Source: an uncultured archaeon (lineage in GTDB: Archaea; Asgardarchaeota; Lokiarchaeia; Sigyniarchaeales; SOKP01). Taken from it: a stretch of DNA of 14,072 bases. The stretch covers positions 13,116 through 27,187 of the forward strand of contig CAYLZE010000068.1 in the NCBI GenBank assembly GCA_964388035.1, in the 5' to 3' direction. Every line of letters begins with the position of its first letter. Positions within the stretch are counted from its first letter, which is position 1. Positions 805 through 12,667 of the stretch are shown here, piece by piece. Position numbers and translations under genes: made by a program. The notes under the pieces are model-generated. The model searched no databases, was not told the DNA's origin, and was given only the letters and a program-made list of their open reading frames with translations.

Positions 805-1293
805 ATGAAATTCTTTAAAAGACATGCAAATATCATCGACAAATCGTTTATAAATAAGGCAATAATAGGATTAGGCTATGGCCTGATAAAAACGAGAGAT
901 TTAATCTTAAATAAGGAATTAGGCATCTCCACTCAGGATGCAATGGATTCCTTGAGCTTGTGGATTGGACGGGAAATAATGAAAGGAATGTTGGAGAAAG
1001 AAGTTGTAAGCGTATCCGATTCCAATGAAACTCTCATTAATTCTCTCATGGATGTGATTAACTTGGCGGAGATGTTGGACATAGAAGTAACTGAAAAGAA
1101 AATAACGACCATCATCCAGAAATGCCTGATTTGTCCCAAACGAGTGGGGGGGTATGATCTGGAAGGAAATACCGCATGTCCCGTGGGAGGAATTTTAATG
1201 GGTGCGATATCTTATGCCCGGGGCATTGATCCTCTCATTTCTAAAAACCGACTTCAAACAGGAGAAATCTGTCATATTGAAATGGAATTATAA
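805..1293 (+). CDS. Stand-alone V4R/HNOB-like small-ligand/metal-binding protein
   Basis: 162 aa. The helix SLWIGREIMK is followed by KCLICPKRVGG...ACPVGGILMGA...ICHIEMEL, the Cys pattern and terminal C-x-hydrophobic strand typical of V4R-like domains. Confidence 0.6.
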   Translation: MKFFKRHANIIDKSFINKAIIGLGYGLIKTRDLILNKELGISTQDAMDSLSLWIGREIMKGMLEKEVVSVSDSNETLINSLMDVINLAEMLDIEVTEKKITTIIQKCLICPKRVGGYDLEGNTACPVGGILMGAISYARGIDPLISKNRLQTGEICHIEMEL

Positions 1294-3849: not shown

Positions 3850-4266
3850 CTATGGATTGCTCTCTAATTTTTTTATTATTTCATCTACCCTCCGCAATAG
3901 ATCATTTCCGGAAAATGGTTTGGTAATATAATAATCCGCACCTAGACGTTTTCCTTTTTGAACGTCTTCATTGAAGCTCCTCACGGTGAACAAGACCACG
4001 TTAATATGCTTGTAACTTTCATTTGTTTTGATTTCTTCCAGAACGTTATATCCCGATTTTCCCGGCATCATGATATCTAATAAAATTAGGGAAATGTCTT
4101 GATATTTTTCTTCCACGATCTTCATGGCTTCTTTTCCATTATTGCATGTGAGTGTATTATATCCTCCCATTTCCAGAAATCTCTTTGTAAGTGTTAAAAT
4201 ATCTGGCTCATCATCGCACACCAAAATGGTGTGCTTTTTTTGAGGGTTCATTTCCATCAAGAGCAA
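3850..4266 (-). CDS. Stand-alone CheY-like response regulator receiver domain
   Basis: ILVCDDE acidic pocket, phospho-acceptor LLDIMMP, conserved T (LFTVR) and K (ITKPFS). The true start may be ATG 4257 or 4251 rather than TTG 4266. Confidence 0.93.
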   Translation of the reverse strand: MLLMEMNPQKKHTILVCDDEPDILTLTKRFLEMGGYNTLTCNNGKEAMKIVEEKYQDISLILLDIMMPGKSGYNVLEEIKTNESYKHINVVLFTVRSFNEDVQKGKRLGADYYITKPFSGNDLLRRVDEIIKKLESNP

Positions 4267-6953: not shown

Positions 6954-7682
6954 ATGACAGATTATCACATAAAAAGTTTCTTTGGCGTGGAAACCGCCCT
7001 AATATTCACCAGTCCTTCTCGGGCGGTTCCCTACATATTTATCAATTGTATTCGGAAAAAAGATAATAAAAGCTGGGAAAAACCTTCCAGGGGCCAAGGA
7101 AAAACGGTCAAGATATCCATTGAGGAACTCATTTGCATTTTGGAGGTGTTACACAGGAAAAGTGCAAATTGGCGGGGATTTCACATCTTTAAAGATTATA
7201 AGACCGAAATCTATGTTGGTTGGGAAGATGAGTCTCGTCAAGTCGTCACGTTCAAAATAGGAGATTACATCAAGAAACTCCGTTTTCCGAATCTTAATTT
7301 TCTCACTTTATTGTTAGAACATGTTCTTTCTGAAAAGATTGAATTTGCCACTTCAGGAACATTTGAACCTTCTATAAGCGATTCTGATAAAGATCTAGAG
7401 GCAGAAGATCAATATGGATTTTTCTCTGAGCATATTACAGCCCGAGATGGTCTTCAAGTAGTGGAGACTACGGAATATGATGTTTCTAACGAGACCGTAG
7501 AAATAAAAGCTAAATTAAAAGTAGAAAGTCCTAAAGCATTATTAATAACGCTAGATTCGGGAGAAGAATTCTGGCTTCCTAAAAGTACCATTCATAATGA
7601 GCCTGATCTTAAAGAAAGAGAGAATTTTCAAAATCTGATCGTGGATAAATGGATAATAGAGAAAAATAAAATCTTAAAATGA
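6954..7682 (+). CDS. Hypothetical two-domain protein: possible Whirly/PC4-like N-domain, acidic linker, small beta-rich C-domain
   Basis: 242-aa ORF with SD-like GTGAGG upstream. Apparent repeated beta4-alpha pattern and a C-terminal ESPKALLI...EFWLPKSTI...IVDKW module. The stop overlaps the next start (ATGA). Confidence 0.6.
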   Translation: MTDYHIKSFFGVETALIFTSPSRAVPYIFINCIRKKDNKSWEKPSRGQGKTVKISIEELICILEVLHRKSANWRGFHIFKDYKTEIYVGWEDESRQVVTFKIGDYIKKLRFPNLNFLTLLLEHVLSEKIEFATSGTFEPSISDSDKDLEAEDQYGFFSEHITARDGLQVVETTEYDVSNETVEIKAKLKVESPKALLITLDSGEEFWLPKSTIHNEPDLKERENFQNLIVDKWIIEKNKILK

Positions 7683-8926
7683 ATGAAATAAAGAGTCCTT
7701 CTTCATATTTTGAGCGACCGGATATTTTAAACGTGCTATTATTAATCATTAATTCCGTTTTATTTTTACTAAAATTATACATTGGATTCCTTTCTAATAG
7801 CATTGCCCTCCAAGCAGACGCATATGATAGCTTGAAAGATTTGGTCATGGCTGTAGCTGCACTGATTGGAATTCTCTATTCTAACAAGAAGCCAAATGAA
7901 AAATTTCCTTATGGTTATTATCGGATTGAAAACATTATAAGTCTCATTATATCTATTTTAATTTTTTTTACCGCCTATACGATCTTCCAGCAGGCTATCG
8001 CAGAAATTTCGTTATTTTTCACGGGGATGGCTAGAAGAATAAATCCTTCCCCACTATTTATCGGATTTTTGGTAATTTCTCTCGCGATATCCTTATTATT
8101 GACTTATTACTTGAAACATGTAGGCAAAAAAACGAATTCTCCAATAATCCAAGCACAAGGGCGGGAAAAATTATTCGATAATCTCATATCTTCTTCCGTG
8201 CTTATTGGATTCATTGGAGCTCTTTTCAATATTTATTATCTGGATTCTATCATTGGGTTAATCATTGGTGGTTTCATCATTAAGGGAGGATATGATATTT
8301 TTATTAATTCTACAAAAACACTGTTGGATGCGGTTATTGATTTTGAAAATAAGAAAGAGTTATATGAAATGATTGAAGGTTTTCCCAGGGTTAATACCAT
8401 GGAACATTTTGAAATTCGATCTTACGGCAAGTATCTCTTTTTAGAGGTAGATATTACCCTTAATCAAGATCTCCCCCTTTCAAAAATTGAAAAATTAAAA
8501 AGAAAGATTTCCGATGATATTAGAAAAAAGTTCCCCATTATTTTCAAAGTCGTGATTCTCACTCATGCTCAATCCATTAGAAAGGTAAAAATAGCCAGTC
8601 CTGTTTCTCAAAACAATAGTTTGAATTCGGAGATTGCTTCTCATTTTGGGGACGCTCCCTATTTTGCATTCATGGAAATTGAAAATACAGGACTTTCTAA
8701 AATCGAGATCATTTCCAATAAATATGTACATTTGGAGAAGCAAAAAGGAATCCAGATTTCAGACTGGTTATGTTCCGAAAAAATTGATAAGCTGTACCTG
8801 AAAAAGGAACTACAGAGAGGCCCCTTGGTTATATTTGAGAATAGCTTGATAGAGGTTGTCATTACGAATGCGGAGACGTTAAAAGAAATCCTCGAAATGG
8901 AGAGGGATCTCCTAAAAAATAAATAA
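7679..8926 (+). CDS. Cation diffusion facilitator (FieF-like) with dimerisation domain and C-terminal NifX/NifB-like (FeMo-co-binding fold) domain
   Basis: SIALQADAYDSLKD, KPNEKFPYGYYRIE, six hydrophobic segments, IRSYGKYLFLEVDI and C-terminal IASHFGDAPYFAFMEI. Confidence 0.9.
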   Translation: MNEIKSPSSYFERPDILNVLLLIINSVLFLLKLYIGFLSNSIALQADAYDSLKDLVMAVAALIGILYSNKKPNEKFPYGYYRIENIISLIISILIFFTAYTIFQQAIAEISLFFTGMARRINPSPLFIGFLVISLAISLLLTYYLKHVGKKTNSPIIQAQGREKLFDNLISSSVLIGFIGALFNIYYLDSIIGLIIGGFIIKGGYDIFINSTKTLLDAVIDFENKKELYEMIEGFPRVNTMEHFEIRSYGKYLFLEVDITLNQDLPLSKIEKLKRKISDDIRKKFPIIFKVVILTHAQSIRKVKIASPVSQNNSLNSEIASHFGDAPYFAFMEIENTGLSKIEIISNKYVHLEKQKGIQISDWLCSEKIDKLYLKKELQRGPLVIFENSLIEVVITNAETLKEILEMERDLLKNK

Positions 8927-10040: not shown

Positions 10041-10649
10041 ATGAGGGATTTTATACACCTTTCCAGAACCTTCTTTTCAAGAAAACCAGAACTTGTTGCG
10101 AAAGATCTGATTGGAAAATATCTCGTGAGAATTCCCGAAAAAAAGGAATACAGTCAGATGGTTGGGAAGATCATTGAGGTGGAAGCTTATCTGGGACCAA
10201 ATGACAAGGCTAGCCATTCTTATAATTGGAAAAAAACTGAAAGAACAAAAACCATGTATGAAGCACCCGGTACGCTTTACGTGTATTTAATATATGGTAT
10301 GTATCACTGTTTAAATGTCATCACGGAAGAAATAGGTATTCCCAGCGCGGTTTTAATTCGCCAGTTATATCCCATTGAAGGGATTGATAGGATGAAACAA
10401 AACAGACAGGTGAAAATTGGGAAGAATTTTAAAAATCTGTTGGATGGGCCGGGAAAATCATGCAAAGCTCTCGATATTACGAAAGATTTATTCAATGGAA
10501 AAGACTCTTGTGCAAAAGATTCTCACCTCTTTTTTGCCGAAGGTGAAGAGGTCAACACTGAGAGGATTCAATTAAGCAAGAGAATAGGGATAGATTATGC
10601 AGCTGAAGATAAAGACCTATTATTGAGATACACGCTTAAAGGTGATTGA
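10041..10649 (+). CDS. mpg: DNA-3-methyladenine glycosylase (MPG/AAG family)
   Basis: GKIIEVEAYLG..DKASHS, YVYLIYGMYHCLNV, AVLIR, GPGK...AL.I and RIGI. Confidence 0.95.
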   Translation: MRDFIHLSRTFFSRKPELVAKDLIGKYLVRIPEKKEYSQMVGKIIEVEAYLGPNDKASHSYNWKKTERTKTMYEAPGTLYVYLIYGMYHCLNVITEEIGIPSAVLIRQLYPIEGIDRMKQNRQVKIGKNFKNLLDGPGKSCKALDITKDLFNGKDSCAKDSHLFFAEGEEVNTERIQLSKRIGIDYAAEDKDLLLRYTLKGD

Positions 10650-10757: not shown

Positions 10758-11246
10758 TTGAAAGTGGGATTAGTCATGACTCGAGATGTGTTAAGGTTTT
10801 ATCAAGCCTATATTAATGAAATGTTCGACATTGGGGGAGAAAACCTTCCGAAATCAATATCTACCCGATTAGGAGCAAAATTGGCACGATCCTATAAACA
10901 GGAGGGAATTCAGGATATAGAGTTTGGAATAAAGACCCTTTTTGGAGGAATGAATGCACGAACTAAAGTTGTAGAGCGAGATCGAGATCGAATTGAAATC
11001 ACCGCGAAATATCGCAAGAGATTTTGTCCTGTCGGTGGCATGTTAAATCCAGAACAAGCAGAAAAAACACAAGAAATGATTTGCCGTCCATACATTTTGG
11101 GATTTCTGAACGAATTGGATCCACAATTTAAATATCACGCGGAATCTAAACAATGTATTTTAGAATCTAACGGAAAAACGTGTTCATTTATTTTAAAAAC
11201 CGAAAGAAAGCATGGCGATGCAAGTAATTCCAACTCTTCTGATTAA
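10758..11246 (+). CDS. V4R-like Cys-rich protein, array copy A
   Basis: RLGAKLA helix, FCPVGG, ICRPYILGFL, QCIL...TCSFILK. The start is uncertain (TTG 10758, GTG 10764 or ATG 10776). Confidence 0.7.
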   Translation: MKVGLVMTRDVLRFYQAYINEMFDIGGENLPKSISTRLGAKLARSYKQEGIQDIEFGIKTLFGGMNARTKVVERDRDRIEITAKYRKRFCPVGGMLNPEQAEKTQEMICRPYILGFLNELDPQFKYHAESKQCILESNGKTCSFILKTERKHGDASNSNSSD

Positions 11247-11384
11247 GTAATTTTGAATTTTGTTCTTACCTTTCTTTTAAAAAGAAAAATTCTCTTCCAT
11301 TAATCAGCTATTTATTATTTAATATTCACTTTTGTTCTTAATTTTTTTAAGGTTGGTTAATTTTCAAAATCGGTATTTTAAATT

Positions 11385-11397
11385 GTTATTTTATAAC
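11385..11397. promoter_or_regulatory. Palindrome GTTAT-TTT-ATAAC, putative operator overlapping a TATA-like element
   Basis: Perfect 5-3-5 inverted repeat ending 73 nt before ATG 11470; conserved at 12089-12101. Confidence 0.55.
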
Positions 11398-11469
11398 GAA
11401 TTATCTATATAATTCATATATTTTTGTAAAAGTTAGAAAAAATATTTAATATATAACTGTAAATAAGGG

Positions 11470-11928
11470 ATGGTTAGTATTACACTAGACGCTCTTAAAT
11501 TTTTTCATTCTTTTTTGCAATCATTAATTGATCTCGGAGGGACCCATTTGCCCGCATCTGTTGCTACTCATTTAGGGGCCAAAATAGGAAAGATATACCA
11601 AAAAAATGGAATTTTGGGAATAGAAAATGGGTTAGAACATATCTATAAAGCTTTAAATGGTAAAATTCAAATAAACAAGCTTGATGATTATACCTATGAA
11701 TTTATAATAGAATATCCCAATAATTTCTGCCCAATTGGTGGAGAATGTAATCCTGATCGAGCACAGATCATACAAAAAAGCATTTGCACTCCTTATACCA
11801 CGGGATTCTTAAAAATAATGGATCCAACCACTAACTATTTGGGTGATATTAAAGAATGCATTCTACAAACAAATGAAAATAAATGCAGATATACATTAAA
11901 AGCATCGAAAGAAAGCATGGAAATGTAA
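11470..11928 (+). CDS. V4R-like Cys-rich protein, array copy B (chimeric tail)
   Basis: HLGAKIG, NFCPIGGEC, SICTPYTTGFL, KECILQTNENKCRY; close paralogue of 12176. Confidence 0.75.
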   Translation: MVSITLDALKFFHSFLQSLIDLGGTHLPASVATHLGAKIGKIYQKNGILGIENGLEHIYKALNGKIQINKLDDYTYEFIIEYPNNFCPIGGECNPDRAQIIQKSICTPYTTGFLKIMDPTTNYLGDIKECILQTNENKCRYTLKASKESMEM

Positions 11929-12088
11929 ATAATTTTAGATCTTCTGATTAAGTAATTTGGGGTAATCTTTTTACCTTTTCTTTATATAAAATATCCCTTT
12001 TCACTAATCGGGAATTTATAGCTTTTCTTTTCCTTTCTTCGGAGTGCTATTAATAAATAATAATTTTTCAAATTGGCATTTTTATATT

Positions 12089-12101
12089 GTTATCTTATAA
12101 C
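12089..12101. promoter_or_regulatory. Palindrome GTTAT-CTT-ATAAC, putative operator
   Basis: Arms identical to the 11385 copy with the spacer changed; ends 75 nt before ATG 12176. Confidence 0.55.
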
Positions 12102-12175
12102 GAACAATCTACTATATAATAATATATTTATATAGAAGAAGGAAGAAATAACTAATATAAAATAATAAGTTTGGG

Positions 12176-12667
12176 ATGGTAAGTATTACACTAGATGCTC
12201 TTAAGTTCTTTCATTCTTTTTTGGGATCATTAATAGATATCGGAGGATCTAATTTACCAGCAACCGTTGCTTCTCATCTAGGATCCAAGTTAGGAAAATT
12301 ATACAAAGAAAGGGGAATTTCAGGAATTGAAGAGGGGTTGAGACATAGTTATGAAGTTTTAAATGCCAAAACTCAAATAAACAGGATCGACACTCTAACC
12401 TATGAGTTTATAATGGATTATCCCGATAATTTCTGCCCAATAGGTGGAGATTGTGATCCTAAGCGAGCAGAAGTGGTGCAAAAAAGCATTTGCTATCCGT
12501 ATACCATAGGATTCTTGAATGAAATAGATCCCAACGCTAAATATACGGGTGAAATTAAAGAATGTATCCTTCAAACGAATGAAAATAGATGCCGATATCT
12601 ATTAAGATTGGAAGAACAAAGTAATATAGAAAAAGTACGTAATATTCCTATAAAGCAACCGCTTTAA
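12176..12667 (+). CDS. V4R-like Cys-rich protein, array copy C
   Basis: HLGSKLG, NFCPIGGDC, SICYPYTIGFL, KECILQTNENRCRY. Confidence 0.75.
   Translation: MVSITLDALKFFHSFLGSLIDIGGSNLPATVASHLGSKLGKLYKERGISGIEEGLRHSYEVLNAKTQINRIDTLTYEFIMDYPDNFCPIGGDCDPKRAEVVQKSICYPYTIGFLNEIDPNAKYTGEIKECILQTNENRCRYLLRLEEQSNIEKVRNIPIKQPL

Follow-up and report, generated by a model that had tools for sequence, protein, structure and literature searches.

Tandem genes for stand-alone proteins of predicted V4R/Bet3 fold in one order of Lokiarchaeia

We analysed a stretch of 14,072 nucleotides, referred to below as the window, from an uncultured archaeon of the order Sigyniarchaeales (Lokiarchaeia; assembly GCA_964388035.1, contig CAYLZE010000068.1, positions 13,116 to 27,187). 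It forms the terminal part of contig C68 in a 5.47 Mb metagenome-assembled genome (MAG; 96.7% complete, 7.3% contamination) and has a G+C content of ~33%. The window contains a tandem array of three genes, here called copies A, B and C (Table 1), which code for small stand-alone proteins that are predicted to belong to the V4R/Bet3/H-NOX fold superfamily and that carry four cysteines invariant throughout their family. We lean, with slightly better than even confidence, towards the view that these proteins are zinc-braced dimeric binders of a small ligand that act in trans. A first-pass annotation of the window had proposed the array as its best candidate for a novel system. This was not supported, as stand-alone Asgard proteins of the TRAPPC3/V4R fold that bind zinc through four cysteines, including predicted Lokiarchaeial ones, have already been described (PMC10933270), and some ten other loci of this superfamily occur in the source genome (V4R, MetOD1, ATC_hydrolase and DUF6125). 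Thus, the array represents a new family of a known protein class.

Array genes and predicted fold

Copies A, B and C are paralogues, 34–66% identical to each other, and lie on the same strand. A word-indexed search for homologues returned 54 clusters, and a profile search then extended these to 421 (clusters at 90% identity). All are annotated as "hypothetical", none has a Pfam domain, and those with named sources come from Asgard MAGs. The family profile matched each of A, B and C with E values of 1e-63 to 1e-67 and matched nothing else in the source genome. Neither the single proteins nor the 54-sequence profile gave a meaningful match to Pfam, NCBIfam or PDB sequences, which confirms the earlier impression that the family is absent from curated collections.

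The open reading frames (ORFs) are real and, together with the identities, the profile E values and the 54-homologue alignment, they support the initial description of three paralogues with common motifs, four cysteines and spacers of their own. The motifs found in all three are GG.(N/H)LP, FCP(I/V)GG, IC.PY..GFL and CIL..N...C. Their spacing had to be corrected: the gap from GFL to DP is three residues, not two, and that from LP to LG is six residues. In the 54-homologue alignment the invariant columns (P0003 numbering) are G23, G24, L27, G36, F86, C87, P88, G90, G91, Q102, C106, P108, C130, C139 and L143, and the four cysteines are also invariant in an alignment of 129 sequences. A fifth cysteine, located in GG(E/D)C, is private to copies B and C. 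The spacers upstream of A, B and C are about 109–127, 223 and 247 bp, respectively, with T-tracts at their ends. For copy A, comparison with the family suggests a start at ATG 10776 rather than TTG 10758.

Table 1. Positions of the array genes and of other features discussed in the text (window coordinates unless a contig or locus is named).
Feature	Position	Strand	Description
Copy A, first-position paralogue	10758..11246	+	162 aa from TTG; likely true start ATG 10776 (156 aa)
Copy B, chimeric duplicate of copy C	11470..11928	+	152 aa
Copy C, last-position-type paralogue	12176..12667	+	163 aa; query for the structure model
First unit of ~705-bp tandem duplication	11190..11894	+	A tail, spacer and most of a gene; repeat families D1, D2, D4, spacing 704-706
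Palindrome GTTAT-N3-ATAAC	11385..11397		85 bp upstream of B
Palindrome GTTAT-N3-ATAAC	12089..12101		87 bp upstream of C; part of the duplicated spacer
Methylpurine-DNA glycosylase (MPG), upstream neighbour	10041..10649	+	Pfam PF02245, E 2e-59
P0004, claimed fourth relative	805..1293	+	CxxC-x14-CPVGG...C
Further superfamily loci in source genome	contigs C2:58125-58981, C45:24434-25393, C8, C9, C18, C69, C71, C75, C96, C118
First-position copies with unusual starts	L015:7429-7446, L017:6708-6725, L019:408-425, L025, L027, L036, L041, L045, L047, L051, L052, L058, L061, L066

An AlphaFold2 (AF2) model of copy C, built from the 54-sequence alignment, reached a predicted local distance difference test score (pLDDT) of 87.7 and a predicted template modelling score (pTM) of 0.80. 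Its elements follow the order H-H-H-E-E-H-E-E (H, helix; E, strand). The best Foldseek matches in the PDB were TRAPPC3/Bet3 (E 1e-5, template modelling (TM) score up to 0.66) and the phenol-sensor domains of PoxR, MopR and DmpR. The E values of these top matches ranged from 1e-5 to 1e-3, and BcsD/CesD, H-NOX and MJ1460 came next. An independent all-against-representatives structural search gave Z scores of 10.9 for Bet3, 10.0 for TRAPPC3 of Thor AB25, 9.7 for PoxR and 9.6 each for DmpR and MJ1460. In a second structural comparison Bet3 reached up to Z 11.4 (139–140 residues aligned with a root mean square deviation (rmsd) of 3.1–3.2 Å), followed by Thor-TRAPPC3 (10.1–10.3), PoxR, MopR, DmpR and MJ1460 (9.4–9.8) and H-NOX (~8). 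All branches of the superfamily were thus matched at Z 8–11.4 over ~125–145 residues. Bet3 was one to two Z units ahead of V4R, whereas the V4R matches were higher in sequence identity (13–18% vs 8–10%).

In the ESM Atlas the family appears as two Promethearchaeota clusters of 138 and 66 members without a Pfam family common to the members, one of them automatically named "putative 4-vinyl reductase 4VR domain-containing". The next neighbours there are clusters of ATC_hydrolase, DUF6125 and MetOD1 (TM 0.62–0.68). A feature search also pointed to newer Pfam families (RdxA_C and MJ0207; PF27323 and PF27343). The AF2 model, the Foldseek matches and the structural Z scores agree, and the array proteins are therefore predicted to be members of the V4R/Bet3/H-NOX fold superfamily, as had been guessed from their motifs.

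Cysteine site and relation to known branches

None of five Pfam models of the superfamily (V4R, TRAPP, MetOD1, ATC_hydrolase and DUF6125) recognises the array. The V4R model (PF02830) matched neither A, B and C (at E ≤ 0.1) nor any of the 54 family members, and in a genome-wide scan it found two loci, neither of them in the array. The TRAPP model (PF04051) did not match A, B or C and had no match in the source genome at E ≤ 0.1. The models for MetOD1 (PF18546), ATC_hydrolase (PF14196) and DUF6125 (PF19620) matched 3, 6 and 7 other places in the genome, respectively, and none at the array (C68 23888-25740). These three families are in the same superfamily, have many copies in the source genome and share the three-cysteine cluster that is common to V4R, MetOD1 and ATC hydrolase (PMC5847659), but their models match none of A, B and C. 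Among the further superfamily loci, the one on contig C2 is a tandem pair and the one on C45 codes for a 339-aa two-domain protein. The proximal haem-ligating histidine and the Y-x-S-x-R motif of H-NOX are absent from the invariant and nearly invariant columns of the 54 sequences.

The arrangement of the cysteines resembles that of V4R. In the model, strand 2 is followed by the FCPIGG loop with C87; C106 belongs to the long helix, whereas the C-terminal hairpin contributes C130 and C139 as its C-x8-C. The V4R-type cluster, consisting of a cysteine at the start of the long helix and a C-x7-8-C hairpin, is thus present in the array family with a spacing comparable to that of MsvR and MopR. A comparison closer to home is offered by the Pfam-V4R protein of the source genome, which belongs to a highly conserved 159-aa Lokiarchaeial family (PF02830+PF10702, "predicted hydrocarbon binding protein"), in which C115, C134, C141 and C150 never vary. 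The spacing is C87-x18-C106-x23-C130-x8-C139 in the array and C115-x18-C134-x6-C141-x8-C150 in the V4R family. When the two families were aligned by hhalign (101 columns, E 0.004, probability 8.7%), NFC87 fell on NFC115 and C130-x8-C139 on C141-x8-C150; both families have the same first spacing, C-x18-C. The likeness to V4R (PoxR/MopR/DmpR, MJ1460, MsvR and the Lokiarchaeial family) therefore comprises the fold (Z 9.4–9.8), NFC before the long helix, the C-x8-C hairpin (C-[IL]-LQT...C-x-[YF]) and the first spacing, and stand-alone forms are known among V4R proteins as well (MJ1460, Lokiarchaeial V4R). The array family differs in having ~17 additional residues between the second and third cysteine, in never being fused to AAA+ or helix-turn-helix (HTH) outputs, in its family-specific GGxNLP, FCPIGG and CxPYxxGFL motifs, and in leaving the Pfam V4R model unmatched.

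The published Asgard TRAPPC3 proteins provide the structural precedent. Crystal structures of Thor-TRAPPC3 (PDB 7YH2/7YH3) show a homodimer with a cavity and a zinc ion held by four cysteines (Tran et al. 2024, PMC10933270), and PoxR likewise has a zinc site, a homodimer and a cavity (PMC10933270). Among Asgard TRAPPC3/V4R proteins the positions of the zinc ligands shift, but in each case they connect the sheet with the long helix (PMC10933270). The array proteins are like Thor-TRAPPC3 and the predicted MK-D1 (MKD1-TRAPPC3, WP_147663132.1) and Heimdall homologues in being stand-alone proteins of ~155 aa with the same fold (Z 10.1–10.3) and four conserved cysteines, which bind zinc in Thor-TRAPPC3; the Thor paralogues, too, lie close together in the genome. 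In contrast to these likenesses, hhalign found no similarity between the array family and 29 Thor TRAPP proteins (probability 0.1%), the cysteines are at other positions, and the phyletic ranges are mutually exclusive. In all 29 Thor proteins the cysteines occupy alignment columns 113, 116, 130 and 163 (CxxC-x13-C-x32-C), and the CxxC of this type is absent from the array family. The eukaryotic Bet3 proteins (TRAPPC3/C5/C6; PF04051) are the best structural matches (Z up to 11.4, 139–145 residues aligned, rmsd 3.1–3.5) and are alike in length and in having multiple paralogues. They differ in that identity is only 8–10%, there is no match to the hidden Markov model (HMM), and Bet3 is without a zinc site, a hydrogen bond taking its place in mouse TRAPPC3 (Tran et al., PMC10933270).

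From the V4R-like spacing of the cysteines and the Zn(Cys)4 precedent of Thor-TRAPPC3 we infer a zinc brace in the array proteins. C87, C106, C130 and C139 would form a structural Zn(Cys)4 site that links sheet and long helix in the manner of Thor-TRAPPC3 and PoxR/MopR and in this way shapes an internal cavity. The proteins would dimerise via their two N-terminal helices, as the solved relatives do. They would bind a small, probably hydrophobic ligand and serve as soluble sensors or carriers in trans, each being expressed from its own transcription unit, the later ones with a palindromic candidate operator. Several points weigh against such zinc-braced ligand binders. The spatial clustering of the four cysteines and the cavity are deduced from predicted topology and homology, the profile–profile link to V4R is weak (the probability of 8.7% given above), and the structural scores slightly favour Bet3 over V4R. 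Moreover, Fe or an Fe-S cluster could take the place of zinc, and the gene context indicates no ligand, partner or output.

If the four cysteines were instead a thiol switch or an Fe or Fe-S site, oxidation could alter the conformation or partner binding, as proposed for the methanogen regulator MsvR. In the V4R domain of MsvR, C206, C232 and C240 govern redox-dependent DNA binding (PMC3729527), and their spacing resembles that of C106, C130 and C139. The strictly anaerobic host lineage and the fifth cysteine of B and C, which lies beside the FCPIGG loop, would also suit a redox or metal-cluster sensor. However, the equivalent cysteine cluster holds structural zinc in every solved relative that has one (PMC10933270), the array proteins have no DNA-binding or other output domain, and no oxidative-stress genes are found among the conserved neighbours. 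We consider redox sensing improbable.

The first-pass annotation had also named P0004, at 805..1293 of the window, as a fourth and more distant relative. This was not supported, since only the CP(V/I)GG word is shared, the family profile misses P0004, and hhalign gave E 0.009 with a probability of 4.6%. Kinship at the level of the superfamily is possible. The cysteine pattern of P0004 is Thor-TRAPPC3-like (CxxC, the cysteine in CPVGG and a C-terminal cysteine), and its four cysteines align with those of Thor TRAPP in an insignificant hhalign alignment. Judged from this pattern, P0004 may be the Lokiarchaeial counterpart of the published Thor-TRAPPC3. Its family is patchy and highly conserved (8 of 101 genomes of the GTDB family, 62–74% identity). 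The AF2 model, based on seven sequences, was unusable (pLDDT 45), the order of helices and strands being compatible with the fold.

Distribution and history of the arrays

An exhaustive single-sequence phmmer search of 1.8 billion representatives (at 50% identity) gave 28 matches at E ≤ 1e-3. When no length limit was set, every match was 203 aa or shorter except for one of 1149 aa, which we rejected as a fused form of the family because it is a TPR/NB-ARC protein matched spuriously. Thus, the family is narrow and stand-alone, and the earlier observation that no output domain is fused to A, B or C extends to the family as a whole. Its most distant members retain FCPIGG, CxPYxxGFL and the C-x8-C hairpin.

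The family profile was also run against 400 genomes of the Asgard phylum. Matches came from 89 of the 134 genomes that belong to the GTDB family of the window and from 4 of 5 genomes in two sister families within its order; the 261 other genomes gave none. The family is confined to one GTDB order of Asgard archaea, within Lokiarchaeia. Some loci (L007, L009, L018, L024, L026, L031, L045 and L050-L052) come from MAGs titled Hodarchaeota, Hermodarchaeota, Thorarchaeota or Odinarchaeota. Their family members sit on short branches nested among Promethearchaeota sequences in the tree; given this nesting and the range of one order, the phylum names that NCBI gives these MAGs seem unreliable or loosely applied.

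We compared 76 loci: the window itself and 75 others, taken from species-representative genomes. One copy was found in 34 loci, two in 32 and three in 10, so that 42 of the 76 are arrays, and the copies are always in tandem on the same strand. In a maximum-likelihood tree the family splits into two clades (Shimodaira–Hasegawa-like approximate likelihood ratio test, SH-aLRT, 99). The "last-position" clade contains 27 second-of-two and 9 third-of-three copies, and the "first/middle" clade contains 33 first-of-two, 8 first-of-three and 7 second-of-three copies, with sub-clades for first and middle. As this deep split follows array position, the duplications are ancient, and the order of the genes was conserved. 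The clades are separated at positions in helix 2 (30, 34, 35, 43), the long helix (101, 112, 113, 116, 118) and the last strand (132, 140, 142). Because the array paralogues vary chiefly on one face of helix 2 and along the long helix and last strand, they probably differ in partner, ligand or both. Several whole genera carry one copy only, so that homodimers must suffice and no heteromer can be obligatory.

The position-specific paralogues bear on a further explanation, in which they heterodimerise like Bet3-Trs33/Trs31 and scaffold longin-domain proteins and Rab-like GTPases, the array being a Lokiarchaeial counterpart of Thor TRAPPC3. Subunits of the Bet3 family are the best structural matches (Z 10.7–11.4) and have the same size of ~150–160 aa, the deep split matches array position in an order that many species share, and the clade-specific changes fall on the helix-2 face that belongs to the dimer interface in relatives (PMC10933270). 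The phyletic ranges are complementary: Pfam TRAPP was found in 79 of 89 Thor-type genomes and in none of the 134 genomes of the window's family, 89 of which have the array family. Set against this are the lack of profile similarity to Thor TRAPP (hhalign 0.1%), the different cysteine positions with V4R-like motifs, and the unmatched Pfam TRAPP model. The V4R sensors score within one to two Z units at higher identity, the several single-copy genera show that a heteromer is not obligatory, and no longin, roadblock or GTPase gene occurs among those conserved neighbour clusters of the 76 loci that were annotated, a survey blind to partners coded elsewhere in the genome. On balance a proto-TRAPP assembly appears unlikely. 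Thor-type genomes mostly have two TRAPP paralogues ~3 kb apart (e.g., G320:C81:53728-57050 and G319:C1:2601976-2605291). A more specific version, in which first/middle and last types form the heterodimeric Bet3-paralogue core of a Lokiarchaeial TRAPP, replace the Thor Pfam-TRAPP pair, dock longin or roadblock proteins and regulate Rab-like GTPases, strikes us as distinctly unlikely. If true, it would mean that paralogue-based Bet3 hetero-oligomers arose more than once, or before the split of Loki and Thor.

The array in the window has its own history. A congener (G162) with the same synteny has two array genes only. In a tree rooted with sister-family sequences, B, C and the second gene of the congener (G162_2) fall inside the last-position clade, and copy A and its G162 orthologue are placed at the base of the clade of family f1, long branches making this placement uncertain. 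Copies B and C belong to a tandem duplication of ~705 bp whose second unit (~11895-12600) is ~76% identical to the first, spacer included. On its left the unit extends into the 3′ end of A, and segment 11190-11246 recurs at +705 with 74–81% identity. In the copied tail the frame of A still reads ERKHGDAS..SSD*, while that of B reads KASKESMEM*. As the A-tail copy is read by B in another frame, copy B is a chimera, with its core from C and its last ~11 codons from an out-of-frame copy of the 3′ end of A. It retains every conserved motif. The ratio of nonsynonymous to synonymous substitution rates (dN/dS) was 0.37 between B and C (dS 0.61) and 0.06 between copy A and its G162 orthologue, to which it is 58% identical; A, B and C are all under purifying selection. 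Of the "diversifying set" envisaged at first, the old split between A and B/C remains, but B and C arose by local duplication and are constrained.

Gene neighbourhood, spacers and meaning

In 61 of the 76 loci the gene immediately before the array, on its strand, is a homologue of MPG, with a median gap of 164 bp. Other conserved neighbours are an inositol monophosphatase, an uncharacterised 241-aa protein, uS10, a radical S-adenosylmethionine (SAM) enzyme and a cation diffusion facilitator (CDF) transporter, with an Ldh_2 dehydrogenase downstream; URO-D and bactofilin are also among the annotated conserved clusters. This neighbourhood amounts to a block of housekeeping synteny in a single GTDB family. 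The adjacency to MPG is absent in sister-family genomes, where the one family gene is flanked by nadC and a C5 DNA methylase or is located elsewhere. We therefore rejected a functional link to MPG as unsupported. No evidence connects the array to ORF 218 (218-802, just upstream of P0004), to ORF 1558 or to the receiver (3850-4266). The contexts of distant relatives are mutually unrelated (a metallo-beta-lactamase with ankyrin in one case, a HerA-like ATPase in another).

In two sister-family genera (L142:2980-5876, G282; L144:5731-8460, G280) the family gene lies between nadC, coding for quinolinate phosphoribosyltransferase, and the C5 cytosine DNA methylase. A second neighbour related to DNA bases beside MPG is probably a coincidence. 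The CDF transporter of the window (7679-8926; Cation_efflux and ZT_dimer) has a C-terminal Nitro_FeMo-Co domain (dinitrogenase cofactor-binding-like), and a homologous CDF at another locus has three ZT_dimer stretches instead.

These neighbours could be taken to mean that the array codes for DNA base modification or repair factors, or else for an enzyme of the ATC-hydrolase-like branch. MPG directly upstream in most loci and the C5 DNA methylase directly downstream in two sister-family genera would fit the former, and ATC_hydrolase and DUF6125 clusters turn up close to the family in the Atlas and in the feature search. Yet the Pfam ATC_hydrolase and DUF6125 models match other genes of the genome and not A, B or C, and the MPG link is part of an extended stretch of housekeeping genes (uS10, radical SAM, inositol phosphatase) and is lost outside the family. 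The array genes, moreover, have their own spacers and T-tracts, and no catalytic residues can be named. We regard both possibilities as very unlikely.

The spacers of B and C each contain the palindrome listed in Table 1. Within the window the GTTAT-N3-ATAAC motif is not significant by itself, as its two matches were reached by 32 of 200 shuffles and both come from one duplicated spacer; the palindrome carries weight only because of the count across genomes. There, the core TTAT-N3-ATAA was found ~99 bp upstream of 26 of 51 non-first array genes, as against 3 of 75 first genes and 23 of 834 other genes in the same range; the palindromes of the window are its local form. It often lies within TTTATTAT(C/T)AAATAAATAA (loci L014-L061, e.g., L016:7257-7267 and L021:7270-7280). 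TTAT-N3-ATAA is thus a candidate operator or promoter element specific to inner and last array genes, and since it precedes non-first genes each later gene seems to have a regulated promoter of its own.

At least 17 family genes have no ATG, GTG or TTG before the invariant helix 1 (DALKFFQAY). In these the frame opens ~6 codons upstream, after a stop, and GGTGAT is followed 3–4 nt on by ATC, ATT or ATA; the first-position copies concerned are given in Table 1. For this reason the 133–138-aa database proteins beginning with MIDIGG are probably truncated calls of genes that start at AUC, AUU or AUA and have a strong Shine-Dalgarno sequence in front.

No known organisms are closer to eukaryotes than the Asgard archaea, and eukaryotic TRAPP tethering and guanine nucleotide exchange factor (GEF) complexes use the Bet3/V4R fold as one of their building blocks. 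The family defined here comprises several hundred sequence clusters overlooked by the current curated libraries. If the array proteins are simply zinc-braced ligand binders, the gain would be one of annotation, namely a new Pfam family and corrected start codons. What gives the family its interest are the ancient, ordered paralogues and a range complementary to that of the Thor TRAPP proteins. The array thus offers a small set of soluble targets for asking whether Bet3-fold paralogues were already heterodimeric in archaea, and which ligand or metal they bind.

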